From: Escherichia coli
Lineage (GTDB): Bacteria; Pseudomonadota; Gammaproteobacteria; Enterobacterales; Enterobacteriaceae
Strand: one strand, 5' to 3'
NCBI RefSeq assembly: GCF_050320075.1
Contig: NZ_CP190018.1
Length of the DNA: 64,000 nucleotides
In this document: one piece after another, positions 20,658-34,399 of the stretch
How the letters are laid out: the number at the start of each line of letters is the position of its first letter
Position numbering within the stretch: the stretch's first letter is position 1
Program-made: the position numbers and the translations under genes
The notes under the pieces: generated by a model
Database searches by the model: none
Told to the model about the DNA's origin: nothing
Seen by the model: only the letters and a program-made list of their open reading frames with translations

Positions 20658-21350
20658 CTAGTGATAACCACGCGCGGTCATAAAATCCGTAATCGCTTTT
20701 TCTGCATCAACCAGTACCTTTTCCAGTGGCTGATTGGCGTCGATATCAACCAGTTGTGCACCACCAAAGGTTAACTGTGGCGTTATGGCTATCTTTCTTG
20801 CCAGCGATTCCCTTTTGTGGTCAGGCTTACGCGCGCAGGCCACATCTAGATCGACATTGAGTTTGATGACCAGATCAGGTTTATGGCTCGCCATCCAGTG
20901 AAACGCTTTACGTTCCTGGCTTGCCAGCCATGAGACAAAACGACCGCCTTCAACGTTAGGTGGGAACACTGTACCATCGTAAGCGCCAGGAATTTGGTCC
21001 TGAGGATAACGGTCGGTTAGAACAATTAACCCGCGACGACGACAGGCAAGCATATGACGAAAGCGCAGTAAGCGACGGGCGACAAACGCTGTAATTACCA
21101 GCGCCGGAACAGGGCCAGGCAATTTTTTTGCTGTTTTCACCTGATTTCGTTCAATTGTTTTATGTAAGGATTTTCCCATCAACGGTAATTTTGTCACTGC
21201 ACGACCGACATTTCCGGCCTGTTTTCCTAAATGAACTCTTTCGGCTGCACCATATTTTTCGACAACGGTAATGAGATGTTCACACACCGTTGACTTGCCT
21301 GAACCATCGCTACCAATAACGGCAATTAATGGAGGTGTTATTGACTGCAT
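20658..21350 (-). CDS. yghT: P-loop NTPase (putative kinase) YghT
   Basis: 230 aa with Walker [10 protein letters not shown] near the N-terminus; paralogous to the next two genes. Confidence 0.85.
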
Positions 21351-21523
21351 GAATATATCCTTTAATTTAAATATCCATTAAAAATATTTATTTGGTTAAT
21401 ATGTTTTTATGAAAGCGTAATTCAGGTCAATGTCACAATTAACCATTGTCACAATAAGGTTGAACGGATATTCTGAGCACGGACCACGTAATATTCAATA
21501 CATTATTTGCTGCCGGGTTTTTC

Positions 21524-22237
21524 GTGAATCAACGTAATATGTCAATAATTAATTCCACGCCAGTGCGTGTTATTGCCATTGTAGGATGTGATGGTTCAGG
21601 TAAATCGACCCTCACGGCAAGCCTGGTAAATGAACTGGCAGCAAGAATGCCAACAGAACACATTTATCTCGGGCAATCGTCCGGGCGAATTGGCGAATGG
21701 ATTTCACAGCTCCCTGTTATTGGCGCACCTTTTGGGCGTTATTTGCGAAGTAAAGCGGCACATGTGCACGAAAAGCCCTTAACACCGCCTGGCAATATTA
21801 CTGCGCTGGTTATCTATCTGCTTTCCTGCTGGCGGGCGTACAAGTTTCGCAAAATGTTGTGTAAAAGCCAGCAAGGCTATCTGCTCATCACCGACCGCTA
21901 CCCGCAGGTTGAAGTGCCGGGTTTTCGCTTTGATGGCCCGCAATTGGCAAAAACCACGGGCGGTAACGGCTGGATAAAAATGTTAAGGCAGCGCGAGCTG
22001 AAGCTGTACCAATGGATGGCGTCTTATTTGCCCGTATTGTTGATTCGTCTTGGCATTGATGAACAAACCGCGTTTTCGCGTAAACCTGACCATCAACTGG
22101 CGGCGTTACAGGAAAAAATCGCCGTTACGCCGCAACTGACATTCAATGGCGCAAAGATCCTTGAACTGGATGGTCGGCAACCAGCCGATGAAATTATGCA
22201 AGCGTCACTACGCGCAATTCACGCCGCGCTTTCCTGA
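21524..22237 (+). CDS. yghS: P-loop NTPase (putative kinase) YghS
   Basis: 237 aa with Walker A GCDGSGKST; paralog of YghT and YghR (shared DRYPQ and ISRKPDH/FSRKPDH motifs). Confidence 0.85.
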   Translation: MNQRNMSIINSTPVRVIAIVGCDGSGKSTLTASLVNELAARMPTEHIYLGQSSGRIGEWISQLPVIGAPFGRYLRSKAAHVHEKPLTPPGNITALVIYLLSCWRAYKFRKMLCKSQQGYLLITDRYPQVEVPGFRFDGPQLAKTTGGNGWIKMLRQRELKLYQWMASYLPVLLIRLGIDEQTAFSRKPDHQLAALQEKIAVTPQLTFNGAKILELDGRQPADEIMQASLRAIHAALS

Positions 22238-22268
22238 TCACCAAAATGGATAGGGGATGATTTAACGA

Positions 22269-23027
22269 ATGGATGCACTACAAACACAAACTGTTAATAG
22301 TACAACCGCGCCGCAGCCCAACTACATTCCGGGGCTGATTGCGGTGGTCGGGTGTGATGGCACCGGTAAATCCACGCTGACCACCGACCTGGTGAAATCG
22401 CTGCAACAACACTGGCAAACCGAGCGCCGCTATTTGGGGCTGCTCTCCGGCGAAGACGGCGACAAAATCAAACGATTGCCGTTGGTTGGCGTCTGGCTGG
22501 AACGGCGACTGGCGGCCAAATCCTCGAAAACCCAAAGCATGAAAACCAAATCTCCAGCGCTATGGGCGGCGGTGATTATGTACTGCTTCTCGCTGCGAAG
22601 AATGGCGAATCTACGCAAGGTTCAGCGACTGGCGCAAAGTGGCGTTCTGGTGGTCAGCGATCGCTTCCCGCAGGCTGAAATTTCGGGCTTTTATTATGAC
22701 GGACCGGGGATTGGCGTCGAGCGCGCGACCGGGAAAATCAACCAATTTCTGGCGCAGCGCGAGCGACAGTTATACCAACAAATGGCGCAGTATCGTCCTG
22801 AATTAATCATTCGTTTGGGGATTGATATTGATACTGCCATCTCCCGCAAGCCTGACCATGACTATGCCGAGCTGCAGGACAAAATCGGCGTCATGTCGAC
22901 GATTGGCTATAACGGCTCAAAAATTCTTGAGATTGATTCCAGAGCGCCCTACAGCGAAGTGCTGGAACAGGCACAGAAGGCGGTTTCTCTGGTTGCCATC
23001 GTTTCTGACCGCCGAAGTTTAACTTAA
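22269..23027 (+). CDS. yghR: P-loop NTPase (putative kinase) YghR
   Basis: 252 aa with Walker A GCDGTGKST; paralog of YghS and YghT. Confidence 0.85.
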   Translation: MDALQTQTVNSTTAPQPNYIPGLIAVVGCDGTGKSTLTTDLVKSLQQHWQTERRYLGLLSGEDGDKIKRLPLVGVWLERRLAAKSSKTQSMKTKSPALWAAVIMYCFSLRRMANLRKVQRLAQSGVLVVSDRFPQAEISGFYYDGPGIGVERATGKINQFLAQRERQLYQQMAQYRPELIIRLGIDIDTAISRKPDHDYAELQDKIGVMSTIGYNGSKILEIDSRAPYSEVLEQAQKAVSLVAIVSDRRSLT

Positions 23028-23072: not shown

Positions 23073-24422
23073 TTGGCGGGTTTTAACATCAAACATTGGT
23101 TTGCAGATGGCGCGTTTCGCACCATTATTCGCAATAGCGCCTGGTTAGGCTCCAGTAATGTCGTGAGCGCTTTGCTGGGTCTGTTGGCGCTCTCGTGTGC
23201 CGGTAAAGGGATGACGCCCGCCATGTTTGGCGTACTGGTGATTGTGCAATCGTACGCCAAGTCGATCAGCGATTTTATTAAGTTTCAGACATGGCAGTTG
23301 GTGGTGCAGTACGGAACGCCAGCCTTGACCAACAATAATCCGCAGCAATTTCGCAATGTCGTCTCATTTTCCTTCTCGTTGGATATCGTCAGCGGCGCGG
23401 TGGCGATTGTCGGCGGCATTGCCTTACTCCCTTTTCTTTCCCATTCATTAGGTCTGGATGACCAAAGCTTTTGGCTGGCAGCGCTGTATTGCACGCTCAT
23501 TCCTTCAATGGCTTCCTCCACGCCGACCGGCATTCTGCGTGCGGTAGATCGCTTCGACTTAATTGCTGTACAGCAGGCGACGAAACCTTTTCTGCGCGCA
23601 GCGGGGAGCGTCGTTGCCTGGTATTTTGACTTTGGTTTTGCGGGTTTTGTTATTGCCTGGTACGCCTCGAATCTTGTTGGCGGCACCATGTACTGGTGGT
23701 TTGCCGCACGTGAATTACGCCGCAGAAATATCCATAACGCGTTCAAATTGAATCTGTTTGAGTCTGCCCGACACATCAAAGGCGCGTGGAGTTTTGTCTG
23801 GTCAACCAACATTGCCCATTCCATCTGGTCGGCGCGTAATTCGTGCAGCACAGTGTTGGTGGGGATCGTGTTAGGACCCGCTGCCGCCGGGTTATTTAAA
23901 ATCGCCATGACATTCTTCGACGCCGCCGGAACGCCAGCGGGTTTACTGGGTAAAAGTTTTTACCCAGAGGTGATGCGTTTAGATCCGCGCACCACCAGAC
24001 CGTGGTTGTTAGGCGTGAAGTCCGGTTTACTGGCGGGCGGAATCGGTATTCTGGTGGCGCTCGCGGTGTTGATCGTCGGCAAGCCGCTCATTTCGCTGGT
24101 GTTTGGCGTTAAGTATCTCGAAGCGTATGACCTGATTCAGGTGATGCTGGGCGCAATTGTGATCTCGATGCTGGGCTTCCCTCAGGAGTCATTGCTATTG
24201 ATGGCGGGAAAACAGCGCGCTTTTCTCGTGGCGCAAACCATCGCCTCAATCGGCTACATCGTATTGCTGTTCATGTTCTGTCATCTGTTTGGCGTGCTGG
24301 GGGCTGCATTTGCTTACTTCGGTGGGCAATGTCTGGATGTGGTGTTCTCGCTAATTCCGACCTTAAAGGCATTTTTTCAGCGCCATTCCTTGCTTTATAA
24401 CTCAGCCGGAGAGAAATCCTGA
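23073..24422 (+). CDS. yghQ: Polytopic membrane protein YghQ, flippase-like (MOP/Wzx-type polysaccharide or lipid translocase fold inferred)
   Basis: Track ORF with a TTG start at 23073. The true start is uncertain; an ATG such as 23211 is possible. About 12 predicted hydrophobic segments. Its stop overlaps the next ORF's ATG. Confidence 0.75.
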   Translation: MAGFNIKHWFADGAFRTIIRNSAWLGSSNVVSALLGLLALSCAGKGMTPAMFGVLVIVQSYAKSISDFIKFQTWQLVVQYGTPALTNNNPQQFRNVVSFSFSLDIVSGAVAIVGGIALLPFLSHSLGLDDQSFWLAALYCTLIPSMASSTPTGILRAVDRFDLIAVQQATKPFLRAAGSVVAWYFDFGFAGFVIAWYASNLVGGTMYWWFAARELRRRNIHNAFKLNLFESARHIKGAWSFVWSTNIAHSIWSARNSCSTVLVGIVLGPAAAGLFKIAMTFFDAAGTPAGLLGKSFYPEVMRLDPRTTRPWLLGVKSGLLAGGIGILVALAVLIVGKPLISLVFGVKYLEAYDLIQVMLGAIVISMLGFPQESLLLMAGKQRAFLVAQTIASIGYIVLLFMFCHLFGVLGAAFAYFGGQCLDVVFSLIPTLKAFFQRHSLLYNSAGEKS

Positions 24423-25246
24423 TGATGAGAAAATATTTCCCGCTTGAGGCGAGCGAGCGTCTATTTGTTGCGATTGAAGAAGATGATGTTGTTGATGCAC
24501 AGGTCAGTTTGCCGCCGACTATCGCACTAAGTTGTACCACCGAAATCATCCATGATAATTACGCGTTATGCCTGCAATTCTGGCTCAATGGCGTCAATCG
24601 CCAGGAGTTACTGCGTTTAATATGCAAACAGGCCAAAGGCGATGAGCTGACTGCTGATGAGCGCAAACAATTTAAATACATGCGAGCGCGCTACAAGCAC
24701 CTGCGTTTTGCGCAACGGCTGTATTTAAAAAAGCATCAGGCCGGATTTTTATTCGGCAAAACGACCGTTTTTTTGGGGCGTTTTCAGGACGGCTTTCGTA
24801 ACGGTAAGAAAAATATTGTGTCGTATTACGGCAACCTGTTACGGGTTTATTTAAGCTCTCCGGTCTGGTCGTTGGTGAACTATTCATTACGCCATAGCCA
24901 GTTAGAAAGCGTAAGCGGTTTTATTGCCTATCGGCAAAAGCAAATGCATACCCTGAAAGAGATAATTGCCAAATCGCGACTAACTGGCAGGGAATTTCAT
25001 GATGTGCGAAAAATCATCAGCCAGCAGGTTTCTTATTACGACACCCTAAGATCGCTTGATCCTGAAAATAAAGAGGCGTTACAGATTTCCCGCTTCCTCG
25101 CCGCCATTAATGGCCTGATGGGGGATAAACACGACGACATGGTGGCGGATGATATGGAAAACCGCCAGTCGTATGATGCACCGATGGCGCTGGATAGCGA
25201 TATTCGTCAGCGCTTAGAACTGCTGATTTCGCGTTTTCCGCTATAA
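24422..25246 (+). CDS. Hypothetical soluble protein, 274 aa, translationally coupled to yghQ
   Basis: The ATG at 24422 overlaps the yghQ TGA. No signal peptide or TM segment and no family recognised; basic composition. Confidence 0.55.
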   Translation: MMRKYFPLEASERLFVAIEEDDVVDAQVSLPPTIALSCTTEIIHDNYALCLQFWLNGVNRQELLRLICKQAKGDELTADERKQFKYMRARYKHLRFAQRLYLKKHQAGFLFGKTTVFLGRFQDGFRNGKKNIVSYYGNLLRVYLSSPVWSLVNYSLRHSQLESVSGFIAYRQKQMHTLKEIIAKSRLTGREFHDVRKIISQQVSYYDTLRSLDPENKEALQISRFLAAINGLMGDKHDDMVADDMENRQSYDAPMALDSDIRQRLELLISRFPL

Positions 25247-25254
25247 CCGGAGCA

Positions 25255-25818
25255 ATGATGTCATCTCGTTTGATTATTGCGCTGGTTATCATGCTCTTAG
25301 CCCCGGGTGTGCAGGCGCACAATTTCGTCACTGGTAAAACGGTTACCCCTGTTTATATCCAGGAAGGCGGCGAGCTGCTTCTGAATAGCGAAGACGAAAT
25401 TCACTACCAAAAGTGGAACAGCACACAGCTGGCGGGAAAAGTCCGCATTATTCAGTATATCGCCGGGCGTAAGTCGGCGAAGAAAAAGAACTCACTGTTA
25501 ATTAAAGCGGTTGAAGCGGCAAACTTTCCGCAGGATCGTTTTCAGCCCACCACCATTGTGAACACTGATGATGCCATCTTTGGTACCGACTATTTTGTCG
25601 TTGGCAAAATCGAAAAAAATAAACGCCGCTATCCATGGGCGCAATTCGTTATTGACGGCAATGGACAGGGACGCGTTGCCTGGCACTTGCAGGAGCAGAG
25701 TTCAACCATTCTGGTGCTGAATAAAACCGGGCAAATTCAGTGGGCAAAGGACGGCAGTCTGACGCCGGAAGAGGTAGATCATGTCATTGCGCTGGCGCAG
25801 AAACTGATCAATGAATAA
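25255..25818 (+). CDS. YtfJ-family periplasmic protein (signal peptide)
   Basis: 187 aa with an N-terminal signal (MMSSRLIIALVIMLLAPGVQA). It resembles recalled E. coli YtfJ over its whole length (HNFVTGKTVTP..., TTIVNTDDAI..., WAKDGSLTPEEV). Confidence 0.7.
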   Translation: MMSSRLIIALVIMLLAPGVQAHNFVTGKTVTPVYIQEGGELLLNSEDEIHYQKWNSTQLAGKVRIIQYIAGRKSAKKKNSLLIKAVEAANFPQDRFQPTTIVNTDDAIFGTDYFVVGKIEKNKRRYPWAQFVIDGNGQGRVAWHLQEQSSTILVLNKTGQIQWAKDGSLTPEEVDHVIALAQKLINE

Positions 25819-25848: not shown

Positions 25849-26919
25849 ATGAAGCTGGTTGAACACTACATCATGCGTGGTACGCGCCGTCTGGTGCTGA
25901 TTATCGTCGGTTTTCTGATCTTTATTTTCGCCAGCTACTCCGCACAGCGTTATCTGACCGAAGCGGCAAATGGGACATTAGCTCTTGATGTTGTGCTGGA
26001 TATCGTTTTCTACAAGGTGCTGATTGCACTGGAGATGTTGTTACCTGTTGGACTGTATGTGTCAGTTGGCGTGACGCTAGGGCAGATGTATACCGACTCG
26101 GAAATTACCGCTATCTCTGCGGCGGGGGGCAGTCCGGGACGCTTGTACAAAGCCGTTCTTTATCTGGCGATACCGCTAAGTATTTTTGTCACCCTTCTGT
26201 CGATGTATGGTCGTCCGTGGGCTTATGCACAGATTTATCAACTGGAGCAACAGTCACAGTCGGAGCTGGATGTTCGCCAGTTGCGGGCAAAGAAATTTAA
26301 CACTAACGATAACGGACGAATGATCCTTTCGCAGACGGTTGATCAGGATAATAATCGCCTGACTGACGCGCTGATTTATACTTCTACTGCCAATCGAACC
26401 CGCATTTTCCGCGCCCGTTCGGTTGATGTGGTTGACCCATCACCTGAGAAACCGACCGTTATGTTGCATAACGGGACCGCCTATCTTCTCGATCATCAGG
26501 GGCGTGACGACAACGAACAGATCTACCGTAATCTGCAATTACATCTGAATCCGCTGGATCAAAGCCCTAACGTCAAACGCAAAGCAAAATCGGTCACGGA
26601 GCTGGCGCGCTCCGTCTTTCCAGCCGATCATGCCGAACTGCAATGGCGACAAAGCCGTGGCCTGACAGCGTTGTTGATGGCGCTGCTGGCCATTTCATTA
26701 AGTCGGGTAAAACCGCGGCAAGGGCGATTTTCAACGTTATTGCCACTGACGTTGCTGTTTGTTGCCATTTTTTATGGCGGCGACGTCTGCCGTACGCTGG
26801 TGGCTAACGGCGCGATTCCCCTCATTCCTGGTTTGTGGTTAGTACCCGGACTCATGCTAATGGGCCTGCTGATGCTGGTCGCACGCGACTTCTCTTTGCT
26901 GCAGAAATTTTCCCGATGA
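25849..26919 (+). CDS. LptF-like permease (YjgP/YjgQ family) paralog
   Basis: 356 aa with the LptF/LptG architecture: three TM segments, a large periplasmic insert, then three TM segments. N-terminus MKLVEHYIMRGTRRLVLIIVGFL. Distinct from housekeeping lptF. Confidence 0.75.
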   Translation: MKLVEHYIMRGTRRLVLIIVGFLIFIFASYSAQRYLTEAANGTLALDVVLDIVFYKVLIALEMLLPVGLYVSVGVTLGQMYTDSEITAISAAGGSPGRLYKAVLYLAIPLSIFVTLLSMYGRPWAYAQIYQLEQQSQSELDVRQLRAKKFNTNDNGRMILSQTVDQDNNRLTDALIYTSTANRTRIFRARSVDVVDPSPEKPTVMLHNGTAYLLDHQGRDDNEQIYRNLQLHLNPLDQSPNVKRKAKSVTELARSVFPADHAELQWRQSRGLTALLMALLAISLSRVKPRQGRFSTLLPLTLLFVAIFYGGDVCRTLVANGAIPLIPGLWLVPGLMLMGLLMLVARDFSLLQKFSR

Positions 26920-27995
26920 ATGTTTTCAGTCGCTATTTAATCCGTCATCTCTTTCTCGGTTTTGCCGCCGCCGCAGGGCTATTGCTGCCGCTTTTTACTA
27001 CCTTCAACCTGATTAACGAACTGGATGATGTCAGCCCGGGCGGTTATCGCTGGACTCAGGCGGTGCTGGTGGTGCTGATGACCTTACCGCGTACACTGGT
27101 CGAACTTTCGCCGTTTATCGCCTTATTGGGAGGGATTGTTGGCCTGGGGCAGTTATCGAAAAACAGTGAGCTTACCGCCATTCGCAGCACAGGGTTTTCT
27201 ATCTTCCGTATTGCACTGGTGGCGCTGGTTGCCGGGATATTGTGGACTGTTTCGTTAGGCGCGATAGATGAGTGGGTGGCGTCGCCATTGCAGCAACAGG
27301 CGCTGCAAATCAAATCGACTGCCACCGCGTTGGGGGAGGACGATGACATTACCGGCAATATGCTTTGGGCCAGGCGCGGTAATGAATTTGTGACGGTGAA
27401 ATCGCTGAACGAGCAGGGCCAGCCTGTGGGCGTGGAGATATTTCATTATCGCGACGATCTCTCGCTCGAATCCTACATTTTTGCACGCAGTGCCTCCATT
27501 GAAGACGACAAAACATGGATCCTGCATGGTGTGAATCATAAAAAATGGTTGAATGGCAAAGAAACGCTGGAAACATCAGATAATCTTGCCTGGCAATCGG
27601 CCTTCACCAGTATGAATCTTGAAGAGTTATCGATGCCGGGAAATACTTTTTCTGTCCGTCAACTTAATCATTACATCCATTATTTGCAGGAAACTGGGCA
27701 ACCCAGCAGCGAATACCGCCTTGCACTGTGGGAAAAACTGGGACAACCCATCCTGACCCTGGCGATGATTTTGCTGGCTGTGCCGTTTACCTTTAGTGCC
27801 CCGCGTTCGCCAGGGATGGGTAGCCGTCTCGCTGTAGGCGTCATCGTTGGCTTACTCACCTGGATCAGCTATCAAATCATGGTCAATCTGGGGTTGCTAT
27901 TTGCGTTGAGCGCACCTGTTACCGCGCTCGGTTTACCGGTAGCGTTTGTGCTGGTGGCGTTGAGCCTGGTGTATTGGTATGACAGACAACATTAA
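26916..27995 (+). CDS. LptG-like permease (YjgP/YjgQ family) paralog
   Basis: Track ORF 26835..27995 trimmed to the ATG at 26916 (MNVFSRYLIRHLFLGFAAAAG...), which overlaps the stop of the preceding permease (ATGA). Same architecture as LptG. Confidence 0.75.
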   Translation: MNVFSRYLIRHLFLGFAAAAGLLLPLFTTFNLINELDDVSPGGYRWTQAVLVVLMTLPRTLVELSPFIALLGGIVGLGQLSKNSELTAIRSTGFSIFRIALVALVAGILWTVSLGAIDEWVASPLQQQALQIKSTATALGEDDDITGNMLWARRGNEFVTVKSLNEQGQPVGVEIFHYRDDLSLESYIFARSASIEDDKTWILHGVNHKKWLNGKETLETSDNLAWQSAFTSMNLEELSMPGNTFSVRQLNHYIHYLQETGQPSSEYRLALWEKLGQPILTLAMILLAVPFTFSAPRSPGMGSRLAVGVIVGLLTWISYQIMVNLGLLFALSAPVTALGLPVAFVLVALSLVYWYDRQH

Positions 27996-28029: not shown

Positions 28030-29202
28030 TTACTGCTTCAGAGTAGCGAACGCTTGAATGATGGCATCAATTTGCTCACGACTGTGGGCAGCGTTTACGC
28101 TACAGCGCAGCAGCGTGATGCCTGCAGGCGCGGCAGGTGGCAGGATAAGATTCACATAAACGCCCAGCGAAATAAGCTCGCGCCAGATGCGTAAACCGTC
28201 CTCTTTCGAACCGATTATTACTGGCACTACCGGGCTAATATGTGAACTTAACTCGTAACCCAGTTTTTGCAGACCGTCATACAGATGGTTGGCATTATCC
28301 ATCAGCTTTTGCCGCAACTCTGGTTGTGTAGCAATGGTTCTTAACGACGAGCGCACGGTCGCAATGCAGGACGGAGAAGGAGAGGCGGTAAAAATATACG
28401 GGCGGCTGCCGTAGCGCAGCACTTCCATCGCTTCCGAACCGACAGCAAAACCGCCAATCGAGGCCAGACTTTTACTGAAAGTACCAACGATAATATCCAC
28501 ATCATCTTCAACGCCAACGGCTTCAGCCAGTCCGCGCCCCGTTGCGCCTAACACGCCAAACGAATGCGCTTCATCGACAATCAAATAACCACCGAGACGA
28601 CGTTTGATATCAACAATTTCCGCCAGCGGCGCAACGTCACCGAGCATACTGTAGATGCCTTCAACGATGATAATCGCCTCTTTTGCCCGTTCACCGAGGC
28701 GAACCATGCGCCGTTCCAGATCTTTAGCATCGTTATGGCGGAAACGAATAATTTCCGCGCCACCGAGAGAACAGGCGTCATAAATACTGGCGTGGCTGTC
28801 GGCATCCAGTAACACCACGGCGTTATGGTCGGCAAGTGCGCTGATGACGCCTAAATTAGCGGTATAACCGGTTGAAAAAACGATAGCGGTAGGGCGATTA
28901 AAAAACTCGGCGATCTCTTTCTCTAACGCCAGATGCGGCGCATAACTGCCGTTTGCCATACGAGAACCGGTGGTGCCGGTGCCTTGGGCCGCTAACGCTG
29001 CCTGACCTTCGGCGATGGCATCATGATTGAAGGTTAATCCGAGATAATTATTGGTCCCGGCCAGAATCACTTTTTTATTGCCGATCCGGCCTTCGGTGGC
29101 GGAATACACTTCATCAATACAGGTACCAAACGGCGTTAACCCGTTGTCACTAAATTGCAGTCGCTCGCCAGCAAGACGCGCATATTTATCGTATAGCCCC
29201 AT
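28030..29202 (-). CDS. Alpha-oxoamine synthase (class-II aminotransferase), serine-palmitoyltransferase-like
   Basis: 390 aa with the PLP-lysine motif GTFSKSLASIGG and a HSFG motif, typical of the Spt/BioF/KBL family. Last gene of a four-gene minus-strand operon. Confidence 0.8.
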   Translation of the reverse strand: MGLYDKYARLAGERLQFSDNGLTPFGTCIDEVYSATEGRIGNKKVILAGTNNYLGLTFNHDAIAEGQAALAAQGTGTTGSRMANGSYAPHLALEKEIAEFFNRPTAIVFSTGYTANLGVISALADHNAVVLLDADSHASIYDACSLGGAEIIRFRHNDAKDLERRMVRLGERAKEAIIIVEGIYSMLGDVAPLAEIVDIKRRLGGYLIVDEAHSFGVLGATGRGLAEAVGVEDDVDIIVGTFSKSLASIGGFAVGSEAMEVLRYGSRPYIFTASPSPSCIATVRSSLRTIATQPELRQKLMDNANHLYDGLQKLGYELSSHISPVVPVIIGSKEDGLRIWRELISLGVYVNLILPPAAPAGITLLRCSVNAAHSREQIDAIIQAFATLKQ

Positions 29203-29450
29203 TATTTATTCTCCAGCCATGGAAGTAGTGTTTCCATTAATTGCGCAGGGGTTTTGACATCCAGCAGAATATTAATAGGAATGGAAATATCGAATCTGTC
29301 TTCCAGCATCATTAAGAGATCCATCACTTTGATCGACTCCAGGCCAAGATCGTTGACGAGATCGCTGTCGGGCTTAATTTCCACACCGTTTTCGACCAAA
29401 TCCTGTAAACAGGAAAGGATGTAATCCATTACTATTTCACGATTTACCAT
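29202..29450 (-). CDS. Standalone acyl carrier protein
   Basis: 82 aa with a phosphopantetheine-attachment-like motif (DLGLESIKVMDL). Its stop overlaps the start of the downstream alpha-oxoamine synthase. Confidence 0.75.
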   Translation of the reverse strand: MVNREIVMDYILSCLQDLVENGVEIKPDSDLVNDLGLESIKVMDLLMMLEDRFDISIPINILLDVKTPAQLMETLLPWLENK

Positions 29451-29481: not shown

Positions 29482-30396
29482 TCAAAATAGCCCGTTGCGT
29501 AATGCGTGTTCCAGGCTAATCCCGGGAAACCAATTAATATCTTCAGAAATACGGTTATTACTTGCTGACCAGTCGGCGTGGGTTAATTCACGGATTTTCG
29601 AGCGGGTCAGCATAGGTTCTTTACCTGCCAGGCGACTCAACGTGGTACTGATATCCGCAAGGCAGGTGAGTACCGACAGAGGAATACCAACCATTCGAAC
29701 GGAACCACAACGGGCGTCGGCGGCAAGCTGTCTTACGCGTTGCCAGTCATAGCCGCCGGCGACGCCATCGCATAATTCATAGGTTTGCGTCTGTACAGTT
29801 TCGGCGCTTAACCACTGCCCCACGGCTTGCGCGAAATCGGTGACGTGCAGGAAAGAGAGCTGTGTATCTGGCGCACCAAGTCGTGGCAGCAGGCCGCGCA
29901 GCATCCAGTCAAACAGCGGTTTTAACTCTTTATCGCCGGGACCATACACGGCTGTCGGGCGAAAAATGCCCAGCGTAATTTCGTCAGCCATTGCGGTCAG
30001 TCGTTGTTCGGCGACGTGTTTGGAGTTTGCATACCAGGAGAGTTCGGGATGACGCGCCGCCAGCGAAGAGATAAACAGAAAACGTTGGCAAAAGCCGCTC
30101 TCTTTTGCCGCTTGCATCAGGCGCAGGCTGCCGTCAACGTTACAGCGGGTAAAAATCTCTTCTTTGTGTCCGCGCACTTGTCCGGCGCAATGGACCACCG
30201 CGCTGGCTCCGGCAACCAGTTCGCTAAGCGAATGTGTATCTTCCAGCGAACCGCGCACCCAGATGAGATTATCATTGACGTGAGCGCGGGCAGTACGCGT
30301 CAATGCGCGAACGTGAAAGCCGCGGGCGAGCAGGTTATCGATAATATATTTACCGATAAACCCGGTAGCGCCCGTCACCGCGACAGTTTGATTCAT
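29482..30396 (-). CDS. NAD(P)-dependent epimerase/dehydratase (extended SDR) family reductase
   Basis: 304 aa with an N-terminal GATGFIG Rossmann motif and a YANSK (YxxxK) catalytic motif. Its start overlaps the upstream ligase stop by 4 nt. Confidence 0.8.
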   Translation of the reverse strand: MNQTVAVTGATGFIGKYIIDNLLARGFHVRALTRTARAHVNDNLIWVRGSLEDTHSLSELVAGASAVVHCAGQVRGHKEEIFTRCNVDGSLRLMQAAKESGFCQRFLFISSLAARHPELSWYANSKHVAEQRLTAMADEITLGIFRPTAVYGPGDKELKPLFDWMLRGLLPRLGAPDTQLSFLHVTDFAQAVGQWLSAETVQTQTYELCDGVAGGYDWQRVRQLAADARCGSVRMVGIPLSVLTCLADISTTLSRLAGKEPMLTRSKIRELTHADWSASNNRISEDINWFPGISLEHALRNGLF

Positions 30397-32114
30397 GCCA
30401 GGGATTCCTGCACATGAAGGCTTGCAGCATAAGCCTTCTGATAACGTTTTTTCGCTTCCGCACGGGCAGGCTTGCCGGAGGACGTTCGGGGAATACTGTG
30501 GGGCGGCAACAGATCGATAGCCGCGGTCACGCCAAATTCGCTTTGGATCCGTGCTGCCAGCGCGTGGATAAGCTGCCCGCGACGTTCTTCATCGCTGATC
30601 CGACACTGGATCTGCAAAATGATTTTTTCCTGGGCGGTAACAAAAGCAATCGCATCGCCAGAATGAATTTCCGGTTCCTGTTCCGCAATATATTCAATAT
30701 CCTGCGGCCAGATATTGCGGCCACGAATAATAATCAGATCTTTAATGCGTCCGGTGACATACAGATAACCGTCCAGCAGATAACCGAGGTCGCCGGTGTC
30801 TAACCAGCCCGTCGCGGCAATCTCGTCTTGTGAAATCTGGTCGCCAAAGTAACCGCTCATCAGGCTAGGGCCGGAGATGCAAATATGGCCTACCACACGT
30901 TCCGCGACAGGTATACCTGCTTCATTGCGGATTTCAATGCCATGTTCCGGCAACGCTTTACCGCAGTTGACGAAAGTCGATACGGCGCGTGTTTCAGCAT
31001 CCGGCGCGACGGCTTTGCCCTGATATTCGAGGATGTCGCGATCCACTTCGTTAACCACAACCCCGGAAGCTTCATCAGAGAAGCTGACAGCCAGCGCATT
31101 TTCTGCCAGTCCGTAGCACGGCATGAACGTTTTATCGTCAAAGTTAACCTGACGAAAACATTCAGCGAATTGATGGAGTTGTTCTGCGGAGATCGGTTCT
31201 GCGCCAATACCAGCGACGCGCCAGCAGGAAAGATCCAGTTCAGCGAGATCTTTTTCATTCACGCGGCGCTGGCACAATTCATAGCCAAACGGCGGCGCAA
31301 CGGAAACGGTGCCGCGATTTTTACTGATCAATTTAAGCCATTGCAGAGGACGCATGGCAAAATCCTGAGTGCGCAAATAATCTACTGAGAGCTGCGTGGC
31401 GACGGGGGTCAGGAGAAAGCCGACCAGTCCCATATCATGGTAGAAAGGCAGCCAGGAGACGCAGCGGTCGCCAGGGCGTAATTTAATGCCATCGTGGCTT
31501 ATAGCACGTAGATTAGCCATCACTTCGCGATGGGTGATAATGACGCCACGGGGAAAACGGGTGCTGCCGGAGGTGTACTGGAGGTAGGCGATATCGTTCG
31601 GAACTGGACGCTGGAGTGCAACATCGGCTTCCGGTAATGCCTTAAACCAGGCGTGGCTTAAAACATGTAATTCGGGTTTGTTATGCGTCGCGGCATTGAC
31701 CAGCGGTAACCACTCATCACCAGTGATAATGGCTGCGGGCTGGCAACTTGCCAGTAAACCCTGCAGTTTGGCGCTCCAGGAATCCCGCTGACCGACGCCC
31801 ATTGGAATCGCCAACGGGACGGCGATTAAGCCGGCATACTGGCAGGAAAAAAAAGCCTCTACGAACCCGCTACTGGTTTCGGCAATCAGCGCCACGCGAT
31901 CGCCTTTTTTCAGGTTCAGCGATAACAACCGCTTCGCACCAGCTTCGGCACGCGCTTTTAACGTCTGATATTCCAGTTGATCTTCAAGTTGGCAACGTCT
32001 GTCATAAAAATTCATTCCGGCGCTACTCAGAGCGGCGTAGTCCAAAGCATCAACCAGCGTTGGAAAATCGGCATAGCGCATAGGTAGGGAATGCGTAAAG
32101 ATTTTATTAGACAT
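30393..32114 (-). CDS. AMP-binding enzyme, fatty-acyl-AMP ligase or acyl-ACP synthetase-like
   Basis: Track ORF 30393..32141 trimmed to the ATG at the complement of 32112-32114 (MSNKIFTHSLPMRY...). Adenylation core motif YTSGSTRFPRGV. First gene of the operon. Confidence 0.8.
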   Translation of the reverse strand: MSNKIFTHSLPMRYADFPTLVDALDYAALSSAGMNFYDRRCQLEDQLEYQTLKARAEAGAKRLLSLNLKKGDRVALIAETSSGFVEAFFSCQYAGLIAVPLAIPMGVGQRDSWSAKLQGLLASCQPAAIITGDEWLPLVNAATHNKPELHVLSHAWFKALPEADVALQRPVPNDIAYLQYTSGSTRFPRGVIITHREVMANLRAISHDGIKLRPGDRCVSWLPFYHDMGLVGFLLTPVATQLSVDYLRTQDFAMRPLQWLKLISKNRGTVSVAPPFGYELCQRRVNEKDLAELDLSCWRVAGIGAEPISAEQLHQFAECFRQVNFDDKTFMPCYGLAENALAVSFSDEASGVVVNEVDRDILEYQGKAVAPDAETRAVSTFVNCGKALPEHGIEIRNEAGIPVAERVVGHICISGPSLMSGYFGDQISQDEIAATGWLDTGDLGYLLDGYLYVTGRIKDLIIIRGRNIWPQDIEYIAEQEPEIHSGDAIAFVTAQEKIILQIQCRISDEERRGQLIHALAARIQSEFGVTAAIDLLPPHSIPRTSSGKPARAEAKKRYQKAYAASLHVQESLA

Positions 32115-32141
32115 ATACACCACGAAAAAATTGGATATCAA

Positions 32142-32485
32142 AAATAAAATGACAATAATGCGGTGGATTATATAGGCATAAAAGATAAATGAGATAGTAT
32201 TTTCATCAGTGTGAAAATGAACATTGATTTAAATAATGAGTTTGAGTTTTTTTGTTTTTATTGTGAATGATATTTAATTTATGAATGTATTAAGAAGAAG
32301 CCTTGTCCGGTCGCCTTAAATCGACAAAAGGCATTGTGGCGCTTCTGTGTAGTCTCTGACCTTATCGTAATCATTAATAAATACTATTTATTCGTCGTTT
32401 GTATTCATTGGGTTGATTATTAAGGTGCCGTTCGTTGCTGTTGCAACCTGTTTGTCACCGTTAATTATTTGTTACCCACAGAACT
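32142..32485. promoter_or_regulatory. AT-rich divergent promoter region between the ligase operon (-) and the yghO-like gene (+)
   Basis: 344-bp non-coding, visibly AT-rich segment. No individual sites were mapped. Confidence 0.4.
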
Positions 32486-33628
32486 ATGGAATGCGATCTG
32501 CTGATGATTAAAATTGAAAAAGTAATTAATAAAAATGACCTTAAGGCATTTATCGCTTTTCCGTCATCACTTTATCCCGACGATCCAAACTGGATACCCC
32601 CTTTATTCATTGAACGCAACGAGCATTTGTCTGCGAAAAATCCGGGGACGGACCATATCATCTGGCAGGCGTGGGTGGCAAAAAAAGCAGGGCAGATAGT
32701 TGGGCGTATTACCGCGCAAATCGATACCTTGCACCGCGAGCGTTACGGCAAAGATACCGGTCATTTCGGCATGATTGACGCCATTGATGATCCGCAGGTT
32801 TTTGCCGCGTTGTTTGGCGCAGCGGAAGCGTGGTTGAAGTCACAAGGTGCAAGTAAGATCAGCGGTCCTTTCAGCCTGAATATCAATCAGGAAAGCGGAT
32901 TACTGATTGAAGGTTTCGATACACCACCCTGTGCGATGATGCCACACGGCAAACCGTGGTATGCCGCGCATATTGAACAATTGGGTTATCACAAAGGCAT
33001 TGATTTACTGGCGTGGTGGATGCAGCGAACCGATCTCACTTTCTCTCCGGCCCTAAAAAAACTGATGGATCAGGTGCGCAAAAAAGTGACCATTCGCTGC
33101 ATCAATCGCCAGCGGTTTGCCGAAGAGATGCAAATCCTGCGTGAGATTTTCAACTCTGGCTGGCAGCACAACTGGGGATTTGTGCCGTTTACCGAACATG
33201 AGTTCGCGACCATGGGCGATCAACTTAAATATCTGGTGCCGGACGATATGATCTACATCGCTGAGATTGATTCTGCACCCTGCGCGTTTATTGTCGGCTT
33301 GCCGAACATCAACGAGGCGATTGCCGATCTGAACGGATCGCTCTTTCCCTTCGGCTGGGCAAAATTGCTGTGGCGTTTGAAAGTCAGCGGTGTGCGAACT
33401 GCGCGAGTACCGCTGATGGGCGTGCGGGACGAGTATCAGTTCAGCCGCATCGGCCCGGTGATTGCGCTGTTATTGATTGAAGCCTTACGCGATCCGTTTG
33501 CCCGCCGGAAGATCGATGCGCTGGAGATGTCATGGATCCTCGAAACCAATACAGGCATGAATAACATGCTGGAACGCATTGGGGCGGAGCCGTACAAGCG
33601 TTACCGATTGTATGAAAAGCAGATTTGA
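32486..33628 (+). CDS. yghO: YghO-like protein, intact; candidate acyltransferase (function inferred from context, not proven)
   Basis: 380-aa ORF (the start may instead be the ATG at 32504). Soluble, no signal peptide. Sits between the lipid operon and glcC, where K-12 has the yghO remnant. Confidence 0.65.
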   Translation: MECDLLMIKIEKVINKNDLKAFIAFPSSLYPDDPNWIPPLFIERNEHLSAKNPGTDHIIWQAWVAKKAGQIVGRITAQIDTLHRERYGKDTGHFGMIDAIDDPQVFAALFGAAEAWLKSQGASKISGPFSLNINQESGLLIEGFDTPPCAMMPHGKPWYAAHIEQLGYHKGIDLLAWWMQRTDLTFSPALKKLMDQVRKKVTIRCINRQRFAEEMQILREIFNSGWQHNWGFVPFTEHEFATMGDQLKYLVPDDMIYIAEIDSAPCAFIVGLPNINEAIADLNGSLFPFGWAKLLWRLKVSGVRTARVPLMGVRDEYQFSRIGPVIALLLIEALRDPFARRKIDALEMSWILETNTGMNNMLERIGAEPYKRYRLYEKQI

Positions 33629-33634
33629 TGGCAG

Positions 33635-34399
33635 TCACCCCTGCTTCATCTCCAGCGGCACCGCCGAGCGAATCAAATGGTGGCCTTCCAGCTCGATATA
33701 GTGGAGATTCTTTTTCACGGTCCGCACATGATCGCATGCTGCGCGCTGGGCGACGTGCGGCAGCCGCTGCAACACCGCGTTGTAGATCCGCGCATGCTGG
33801 CGATCGATCTGCTTTTTTTGCTGTGGTCGATGGTAGAGATTATTTACGCTGGCAAACACTGAATTAAACATCAGATCGGTCAATGATTGCAGCGTAAACA
33901 CCAACACCTGATTGTGAGAAGCCTGACAAATGGCGAGATGGAAAGCGTGATCCAACTGCGCATGTTCGATCAGCGAAATCTCTTTGTTGTTCTCACTGGC
34001 GGCGAGCATTTTTTCATAACAGCGGGTTATCACAACAAAATCAGCCTGGGTTCCCAGCGTTGCCGCAAGCCTTGCCGATTCACCCTCCAGCAATGCGCGA
34101 ACGTCGAGCAGATCGTACAGCGTTCGCGGCTGCGTGCTGAACAGATGAATTAGCGGGCTGGTATCCTGCACCCGATTAAGCCGTGCGACACGAGAATCGC
34201 GACCCTGCGCCGTTTCAATAATCCCGCGCCCGCGCAGCACGGTCAGCCCTTCACGCAGTGCGGAGCGTGAGAAGCCGAGCTTTTCACACAGTCGACGTTC
34301 CGAGGGAAGCGGCTGACCGACCTTCAGTACGCCGTCGATAATTAACCGTTCGATACTCTCTGCAACCACTTCGCAAATAGGGCGACGTTCATCTTTCAT
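33635..34399 (-). CDS. glcC: GntR-family regulator of the glc operon, GlcC
   Basis: Track ORF 33635..34459 trimmed to the ATG at the complement of 34397-34399 (MKDERRPICEVVAESIERLIIDG...). Confidence 0.9.
   Translation of the reverse strand: MKDERRPICEVVAESIERLIIDGVLKVGQPLPSERRLCEKLGFSRSALREGLTVLRGRGIIETAQGRDSRVARLNRVQDTSPLIHLFSTQPRTLYDLLDVRALLEGESARLAATLGTQADFVVITRCYEKMLAASENNKEISLIEHAQLDHAFHLAICQASHNQVLVFTLQSLTDLMFNSVFASVNNLYHRPQQKKQIDRQHARIYNAVLQRLPHVAQRAACDHVRTVKKNLHYIELEGHHLIRSAVPLEMKQG

Follow-up and report, generated by a model that had tools for sequence, protein, structure and literature searches.

The Escherichia coli protein YghO, encoded beside a sphingolipid operon, is the probable orthologue of the bacterial ceramide synthase

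Introduction

Next to an operon for the synthesis of sphingoid bases Escherichia coli can carry the gene yghO, and the question raised by this locus is whether its product is the N-acyltransferase that turns such a base into a ceramide-like lipid. An original prediction, made from a 64-kb stretch of E. coli DNA (here called the window), had presented YghO as a candidate for this step. It is supported by the co-occurrence with sphingolipid genes described below as well as by the published orthology to the Caulobacter protein CC_1154 (PMC9386255). In our estimation YghO is with a probability of about 0.85 the E. coli orthologue of bCerS/CerS, namely a cytoplasmic enzyme built of two fused GNAT domains that N-acylates a long-chain base, with acyl-CoA as the most likely donor.

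This assignment is already known. In 2022 Padilla-Gomez et al. (PMC9386255, Fig. 9) listed “aca: CC_1154, yghO ECD_02850” as the acyl-CoA N-acyltransferase within a five-gene set for dihydroceramide, and the published figure for the pair CC_1154 and ECD_02850 (i.e., yghO) amounts to 44% identity and 61% similarity at 98% coverage with an E-value of 1e-107 (Table S2 of the same paper). CC_1154, also denominated CerS, bCerS or CCNA_01212, is genetically required for (dihydro)ceramide formation in Caulobacter, and bCerS is a cytoplasmic, peripheral protein. [quoted passage not shown] The ceramide synthase assignment of E. coli YghO was thus published by homology, and what we contribute is independent support from the fold, synteny statistics, natural fusions and selection, and no discovery. 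Neither an assay nor a knockout of E. coli YghO was found in the literature searched, and its N-acyltransferase activity is what we infer here.

The yghO gene and its surroundings

The reading frame of yghO starts with ATG and runs through 380 codons to the stop without any interruption. Positions 32100-33700 of the window are 100% identical to strain YZLc1-3, where RefSeq denominates the gene yghO and its product “protein YghO” (WP_001300526.1), so that our analysis of open reading frames and the RefSeq call both agree with the uninterrupted 380-aa frame originally described. The arrangement of its neighbours was also described correctly. The gene diverges from the ligase operon across an AT-rich spacer of 344 bp, if the longest ligase frame (start at 32141) is taken, or of 371 bp from the RefSeq start (32114), and it converges with glcC (33635..34399, minus strand). 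Promoter- and terminator-like sites in the spacer are not more frequent than in shuffled sequences, and neither a match in Rfam nor meaningful repeats were detected in it. The stop codons of yghO and glcC lie 6 nt apart (33626-33637), and therefore a terminator of either gene, if there is one, would have to sit within the other. All features of the locus are collected in Table 1.

Table 1. Features of the yghO locus with their positions in the 64-kb window.
Feature	Position	Strand	Basis or remark
yghQ, 274-aa protein without known family, YtfJ-family protein	23073..25818	+	rest of block deleted in K-12
lptF2-lptG2, LPS-extraction permease paralogs	25849..27995	+	NCBIfam TIGR04407 and TIGR04408 above cutoff
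spt, serine palmitoyltransferase	28030..29202	-	NCBIfam equivalog NF047599, 599.5 bits (cutoff 500)
acpR, specialised acyl carrier protein	29202..29450	-	RefSeq and family scan
cerR/epi, NAD-dependent SDR-type reductase, orthologue of ECD_02852	29482..30396	-	RefSeq name, weak SDR hits, literature assignment
aasR, fatty acyl-AMP ligase / acyl-AcpR synthetase	30393..32114	-	NCBIfam NF006624, 872 bits (cutoff 600)
AT-rich divergent control region between ligase operon and yghO	32115..32485		32% GC against 51% for the window
yghO, 380-aa protein, soluble tandem GNAT according to the model	32486..33628	+	probable orthologue of bacterial ceramide synthase (bCerS/CerS, Caulobacter CC_1154 = CCNA_01212)
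N-terminal GNAT-like half, residues ~9-180	32510..33025	+	secondary structure of the model
C-terminal GNAT half, residues ~200-380	33083..33625	+	sole half with sequence-level GNAT signal
Signature N-S-G-W-Q-H-N-W-G-F-V-P, consensus NDAWxxNWGFVP	33152..33187	+	family alignment
G-V-R-D-E-Y-Q-F-S-R-I-G-P, expanded motif-A-like loop after strand beta-4 of the C-terminal half	33419..33457	+	HMM alignment
S-W-I-L-E-T-N motif, consensus SWILEDN	33530..33550	+	family alignment

In the window spt, acpR, cerR, aasR and lptF2/G2 all adjoin yghO. Among the BL21(DE3) counterparts SPT was assayed, the aasR orthologue ECD_02851 was biochemically characterised and the acpR product was found to carry 4'-phosphopantetheine (PMC9386255). 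For the cerR/epi product the function of a 3-keto reductase is predicted. Its N-terminus opens straight with a Rossmann motif (MNQTVAVTGATGFIGK), and visual inspection reveals no signal peptide. Caulobacter CerR is reported to be periplasmic, and the localisation of the reductase in E. coli may bear on the order of the pathway steps.

The permease genes lptF2 and lptG2 are second copies that lie within the sphingolipid locus, and RefSeq denominates them “LPS export ABC transporter permease LptF/LptG” because their scores exceed the curated NCBIfam equivalog cutoffs. A preprint from 2026 implicates the Caulobacter LptF2/G2 in sphingolipid export and draws the sphingolipid locus of E. coli UTI89 beside those of Caulobacter and Sphingomonas. 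Since this preprint ties the Caulobacter counterparts to sphingolipid export, the RefSeq names are probably misleading here, and lptF2-lptG2 can be considered as a candidate sphingolipid exporter.

YghO had originally been regarded as the sole unassigned enzyme-sized gene product of this region. This did not hold, since a 274-aa protein (24422..25246, plus strand) and a YtfJ-family protein are present as well. For the 274-aa protein no family was found in Pfam or NCBIfam. It is conserved with 51–74% identity across the clusters of Enterobacterales, and in Luteibacter (locus L051) a 51% match is situated close to the YghO homologue; it is a further candidate component of the pathway, with a possible role in head-group attachment or in transport. 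In the family scan YghQ appears weakly similar to MOP flippases. All three, i.e., yghQ and the genes of the 274-aa and the YtfJ-family protein, are co-conserved with the cluster in loci of Enterobacterales.

Further upstream the locus is flanked by three P-loop genes, yghT, yghS and yghR (20658-23027), which are kept in K-12 and are named “dTMP kinase” or “ATP-binding protein” in RefSeq. They were considered as an equivalent of the Caulobacter ceramide kinase and rejected, because that kinase belongs to the LCB5/diacylglycerol-kinase type and the products of yghR, yghS and yghT do not.

Genomic linkage and natural fusions

Loci with YghO homologues were collected by a signature scan with one genome per species, which yielded at least 600 loci, all of them confirmed by tblastn. 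The best 80 were taken with flanks of up to 10 kb and queried with the proteins of the window itself; the 55 in which each flank measures 8 kb or more form the full-flank set. In 50 of these 55 loci, drawn from the best 80 of at least 600, genes for Spt, ACP, reductase or ligase or the LptF2/G2 paralogs occur within 10 kb. The core set comprises Spt, AcpR, reductase and ligase; in 30 of these loci Spt occurs and no fewer than three of the four members are represented, and in 16 further ones LptF2/G2 alone adjoin the YghO homologue, which is the arrangement known from Nitrosomonas. Five full-flank loci are devoid of any sphingolipid gene within 10 kb. The original prediction had proposed co-occurrence across genomes as a check, and YghO homologues do indeed reside beside genes of sphingolipid synthesis and transport.

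One of the five loci without sphingolipid genes harbours the second paralog of Shimwellia pseudoproteus (L013:10001-11137), which is 74% identical to YghO and located on another contig than the first copy (L005), the latter being 83% identical and situated inside a full cluster.

Three natural fusions were found within the family. The protein P0191 (940 aa, L084:10001-12823) joins a YghO-like module (residues 1-373) with an AasR-like fatty acyl-AMP ligase (387-934), in P0132 (630 aa) a fatty-acid hydroxylase domain (PF04116, E 1e-18) precedes the YghO module at the N-terminus, and P0121 (784 aa) is a tandem of two complete YghO modules. Judged by these domain assignments, the three fusions point the same way and would agree with a role in a lipid pathway. 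In the surroundings of P0191 no spt is found within 10 kb and a gene for an MGDG-synthase-like glycosyltransferase adjoins; the fusion is known from one metagenome contig with many fragmented gene calls, whose assembly is possibly noisy.

A divergent ligase gene directly upstream of the YghO homologue, separated by 270-1080 bp as in the window, occurs in 28 of the best 80 loci. The respective organisms belong to Enterobacterales, Pseudomonas, Salinicola, Nitrococcus, Gemmatimonadota, Betaproteobacteria and Desulfuromonadales. The divergent AasR–YghO pair, which spans several phyla and is conserved more than any other feature of the surroundings, invites the reading that YghO does act in this pathway but receives its acyl chain from acyl-AcpR (or from the AasR-bound acyl-adenylate) and not from acyl-CoA, one ligase then feeding both lipid chains. 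The pairing could be explained by co-regulation alone, however, and the YghO–ligase fusion, which would also fit, stems from the single contig just mentioned. While Rhodobacterial SPTs favour acyl-AcpR over acyl-CoA (PMC9386255), CoA thioesters are typical for GNAT enzymes and CC_1154 is described in the literature as an acyl-CoA N-acyltransferase. We therefore hold acyl-AcpR to be an unlikely donor. If it were true in E. coli, a second chain fed by AasR and AcpR would explain the AT-rich control region common to aasR and yghO.

Protein family, fold and conserved motifs

Against Pfam the YghO query gives no match even at E ≤ 10, and the NCBIfam scan is empty as well. Exhaustive searches with HMMER reveal a large, uniform family: its cluster representatives number 6502 at E ≤ 1e-3 and 1128 at E ≤ 1e-30, and almost without exception their length is 370-400 aa. 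Homologues with about 80% identity are found in Serratia, Citrobacter, Pluralibacter, Pantoea and Erwinia, where databases name them “N-acetyltransferase”, “GNAT family N-acetyltransferase” or, wrongly, “DNA-binding protein”. The Pfam family PF00583 is reached at E ≤ 0.001 by 6 of 42 family members, and in a close homologue with a precomputed PF00583 flag the matches were non-significant on rescanning (E 1.7 and 5.4). A model dedicated to the bCerS/YghO family exists neither in Pfam nor in NCBIfam. Among the public names of the family also “DNA-binding transcriptional regulator” and “dATP pyrophosphohydrolase” occur, and like “DNA-binding protein” they do not fit a tandem GNAT fold.

The structure model of YghO, which was matched against solved structures, is compact and globular with two domains, and the GNAT alpha/beta fold occurs in it twice. 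The fold had been named originally as a point on which the prediction could fail; in the model two GNAT domains account for the entire chain and no DNA-binding or unrelated fold appears. A transmembrane segment is absent from YghO (the highest mean Kyte-Doolittle value over 19 residues is 1.36), as is a signal peptide or any other N-terminal hydrophobic stretch. This is consistent with a soluble peripheral protein of the cytoplasm like bCerS, and YghO is probably soluble and associated with the membrane periphery. At the level of sequence the similarity to solved GNATs is marginal (profile search, E 0.03-0.6), and thus the assignment of the active site rests on the model and on analogy.

In the N-terminal half residues G73, R74, A77, F94, G95, P128, N134, G138 and G143 are conserved according to the family alignment, and no R/Q-x-x-G-x-G/A pyrophosphate loop is recognisable past the fourth strand. 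This half may form part of the cleft for the lipid substrate. For the C-terminal half the family profile aligns residues 310-380 with the motif-A region of PDB entry 3tt2 and residues 218-295 with 7q3a, both matches being weak (E 0.03-0.1). By analogy with tandem GNATs, and because the motif-A-like loop and the GNAT signal occur in this half only, it would represent the acyl-thioester-binding, catalytic domain. Its signature NDAWxxNWGFVP contains W226, N229, W230, G231, F232 and P234, which are invariant or nearly so in the family alignment, and it was with this pattern that the genome scan yielded its at least 600 loci. The motif-A-like loop shows a 4-residue expansion if compared to “GVRRPWRGR----GIA” of 3tt2 in a weak profile-to-PDB match (E 0.03) and is regarded as the putative CoA pyrophosphate-binding loop. 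Within the SWILEDN motif N355 is invariant and W350 and L352 are nearly so, which makes it a candidate for the catalytic strand.

The best structural matches of the model are glucosamine N-acetyltransferase, MshD and Eis, so the solved structures nearest to it belong to acetyltransferases whose substrates are amino sugars or small molecules, and not to lipid acyltransferases. Together with the database name “N-acetyltransferase” this could suggest that YghO is an ordinary N-acetyltransferase of an amino sugar, a small amine or protein lysine that came to lie beside the lipid operon by chance. Such a chance neighbourhood would have to account for a linkage with sphingolipid genes that reaches from Enterobacterales to Nitrospira and Desulfobacterota, for the fusion of YghO modules to lipid enzymes and for the requirement of the Caulobacter orthologue in ceramide formation. 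It is true that yghO was among the candidates of a screen for lysine acetyltransferases of E. coli, but in the accessible part of that publication the gene is mentioned in the strain and plasmid lists only, and the K-12 allele used there is 5'-truncated. The screen reportedly yielded four new acetyltransferases, yghO not being one of them. Altogether an ordinary acetyltransferase appears improbable to us.

The solved tandem GNATs differ from YghO in further respects. MAB_4324 (7q3a), GlmA (5kf1), clavulanate ORF14 (2wpw) and MshD (1ozp) share only 13–15% sequence identity with it, transfer acetyl (or similarly small acyl) groups to sugars or small molecules and lack the NDAWxxNWGFVP and SWILEDN signatures. 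N-myristoyltransferase (e.g., 8fbt, 2p6e) is a much weaker structural match; it is eukaryotic and its substrate is the N-terminus of proteins. Eukaryotic ceramide synthases (Lag1/CerS, with TLC domain) catalyze the same overall reaction as proposed for YghO, the N-acylation of a sphingoid base, but they are unrelated polytopic membrane proteins, whereas YghO has a GNAT fold and neither a TLC-domain hit nor a transmembrane segment. That bacterial and eukaryotic ceramide synthases represent a case of convergence has already been stated in the field.

Distribution and selection within Escherichia coli

Among 5426 complete genomes of E. coli the operon of spt, acpR, reductase and ligase is present at ≥80% coverage in 4067, and yghO together with its upstream region in 4139, while approximately 875 are without any yghO. 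Compared to strain Ec1120 all 12 of 12 nucleotide differences in yghO are synonymous, and compared to an allele with 95% identity pN/pS is 0.086, the values ranging from 0 to 0.086. In E. coli purifying selection thus acts on yghO, and the gene is maintained.

A different situation is met in K-12. In MG1655 an IS5 element precedes the annotated yghO at a distance of 35 nt, and nothing is left of the block that extends from the truncated yghQ, whose 3' part is gone, up to codon ~13 of yghO. The MG1655 protein matches that of the window only from residue 15 on, where it is 99% identical. The original prediction, which spoke of a pseudogene remnant in K-12, was right insofar as the 5' part and the block of partner genes are gone next to IS5, but PGAP still annotates a CDS of 378 aa with a foreign N-terminus.

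It might accordingly be asked whether yghO is a decaying remnant without function in E. coli in general. K-12 has indeed lost its partner operon completely, along with the promoter and ~13 codons at the start of the gene, and the genomes without yghO counted above could be quoted in the same sense; against them stand the ~4139 genomes that retain the gene with its upstream region and the intact copy of the window with its low pN/pS, so that general decay is very improbable. For the allele of the window itself the pseudogene reading was ruled out by the selection data.

Least credible of all is the older view of YghO as a DNA-binding transcriptional regulator, a name still carried by some UniProt and NCBI entries, since the whole model consists of two GNAT domains and neither a helix-turn-helix nor another DNA-binding fold was among the matches, and on this modelled fold the legacy name was rejected.

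A loss of another kind was observed in E. coli 21AH057 (L085, 9094-12885), which retains a complete spt operon as well as the transport genes but has lost yghO; IS1, a gene for a TPR protein and an integrase gene by tRNA-Phe follow there directly past the ligase. This spt-positive and yghO-negative isolate is ready-made for comparison.

Comparison with Caulobacter and proposed pathway

Returning to YghO as ceramide synthase, the closest reference is Caulobacter bCerS (also “Aca”), which belongs to the same family and the same length class and is likewise encoded in a neighbourhood of spt, acpR, cerR, aasR, lptF2/G2 and a flippase-like gene. YghO is also 50% identical over residues 8-380 to a protein of N. 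eutropha (L071), whose orthologue in strain C91, Neut_1100, is listed in Table S2 of PMC9386255. The gene order differs: yghO of E. coli diverges from aasR, while its counterparts in Caulobacter and Nitrosomonas adjoin lptG2/lptF2 (in Caulobacter CCNA_01213 and CCNA_01214 come after CCNA_01212). Among the annotated genes of the E. coli locus none is an obvious homologue of those for the phosphoglycerate head group in Caulobacter, and hence the final lipid may differ from that of Caulobacter.

In the proposed pathway AasR would load a fatty acid onto AcpR, and Spt would condense the resulting acyl-AcpR with serine to 3-ketosphinganine, two steps that were shown for the BL21 proteins (PMC9386255). 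YghO would then acylate, in the cytoplasm, the C2 amino group of the long-chain base with a second fatty acyl chain taken from a thioester, giving (3-oxo)dihydroceramide. The donor would most likely be acyl-CoA, presumably held by the C-terminal GNAT half, while the N-terminal half may help to shape the pocket for the lipid amine. The SDR reductase of the operon would reduce the 3-keto group before or after N-acylation, the order of acylation and reduction being disputed in the field. As candidates for export the flippase-like YghQ and LptF2/G2 might finally move the lipid outwards.

Significance

With the spt operon in 4067 of 5426 complete genomes, about three quarters of E. coli would possess a full gene set for making ceramide and transporting it to the outer membrane, a set that K-12 lost by a deletion next to IS5. 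YghO is predicted to convert the sphingoid base into a lipid with two chains and thereby completes the pathway on paper, and its family still awaits a curated model and a correct name in the databases. Sphingolipids in commensal and pathogenic E. coli could affect the properties of the outer membrane and the interactions with the host.
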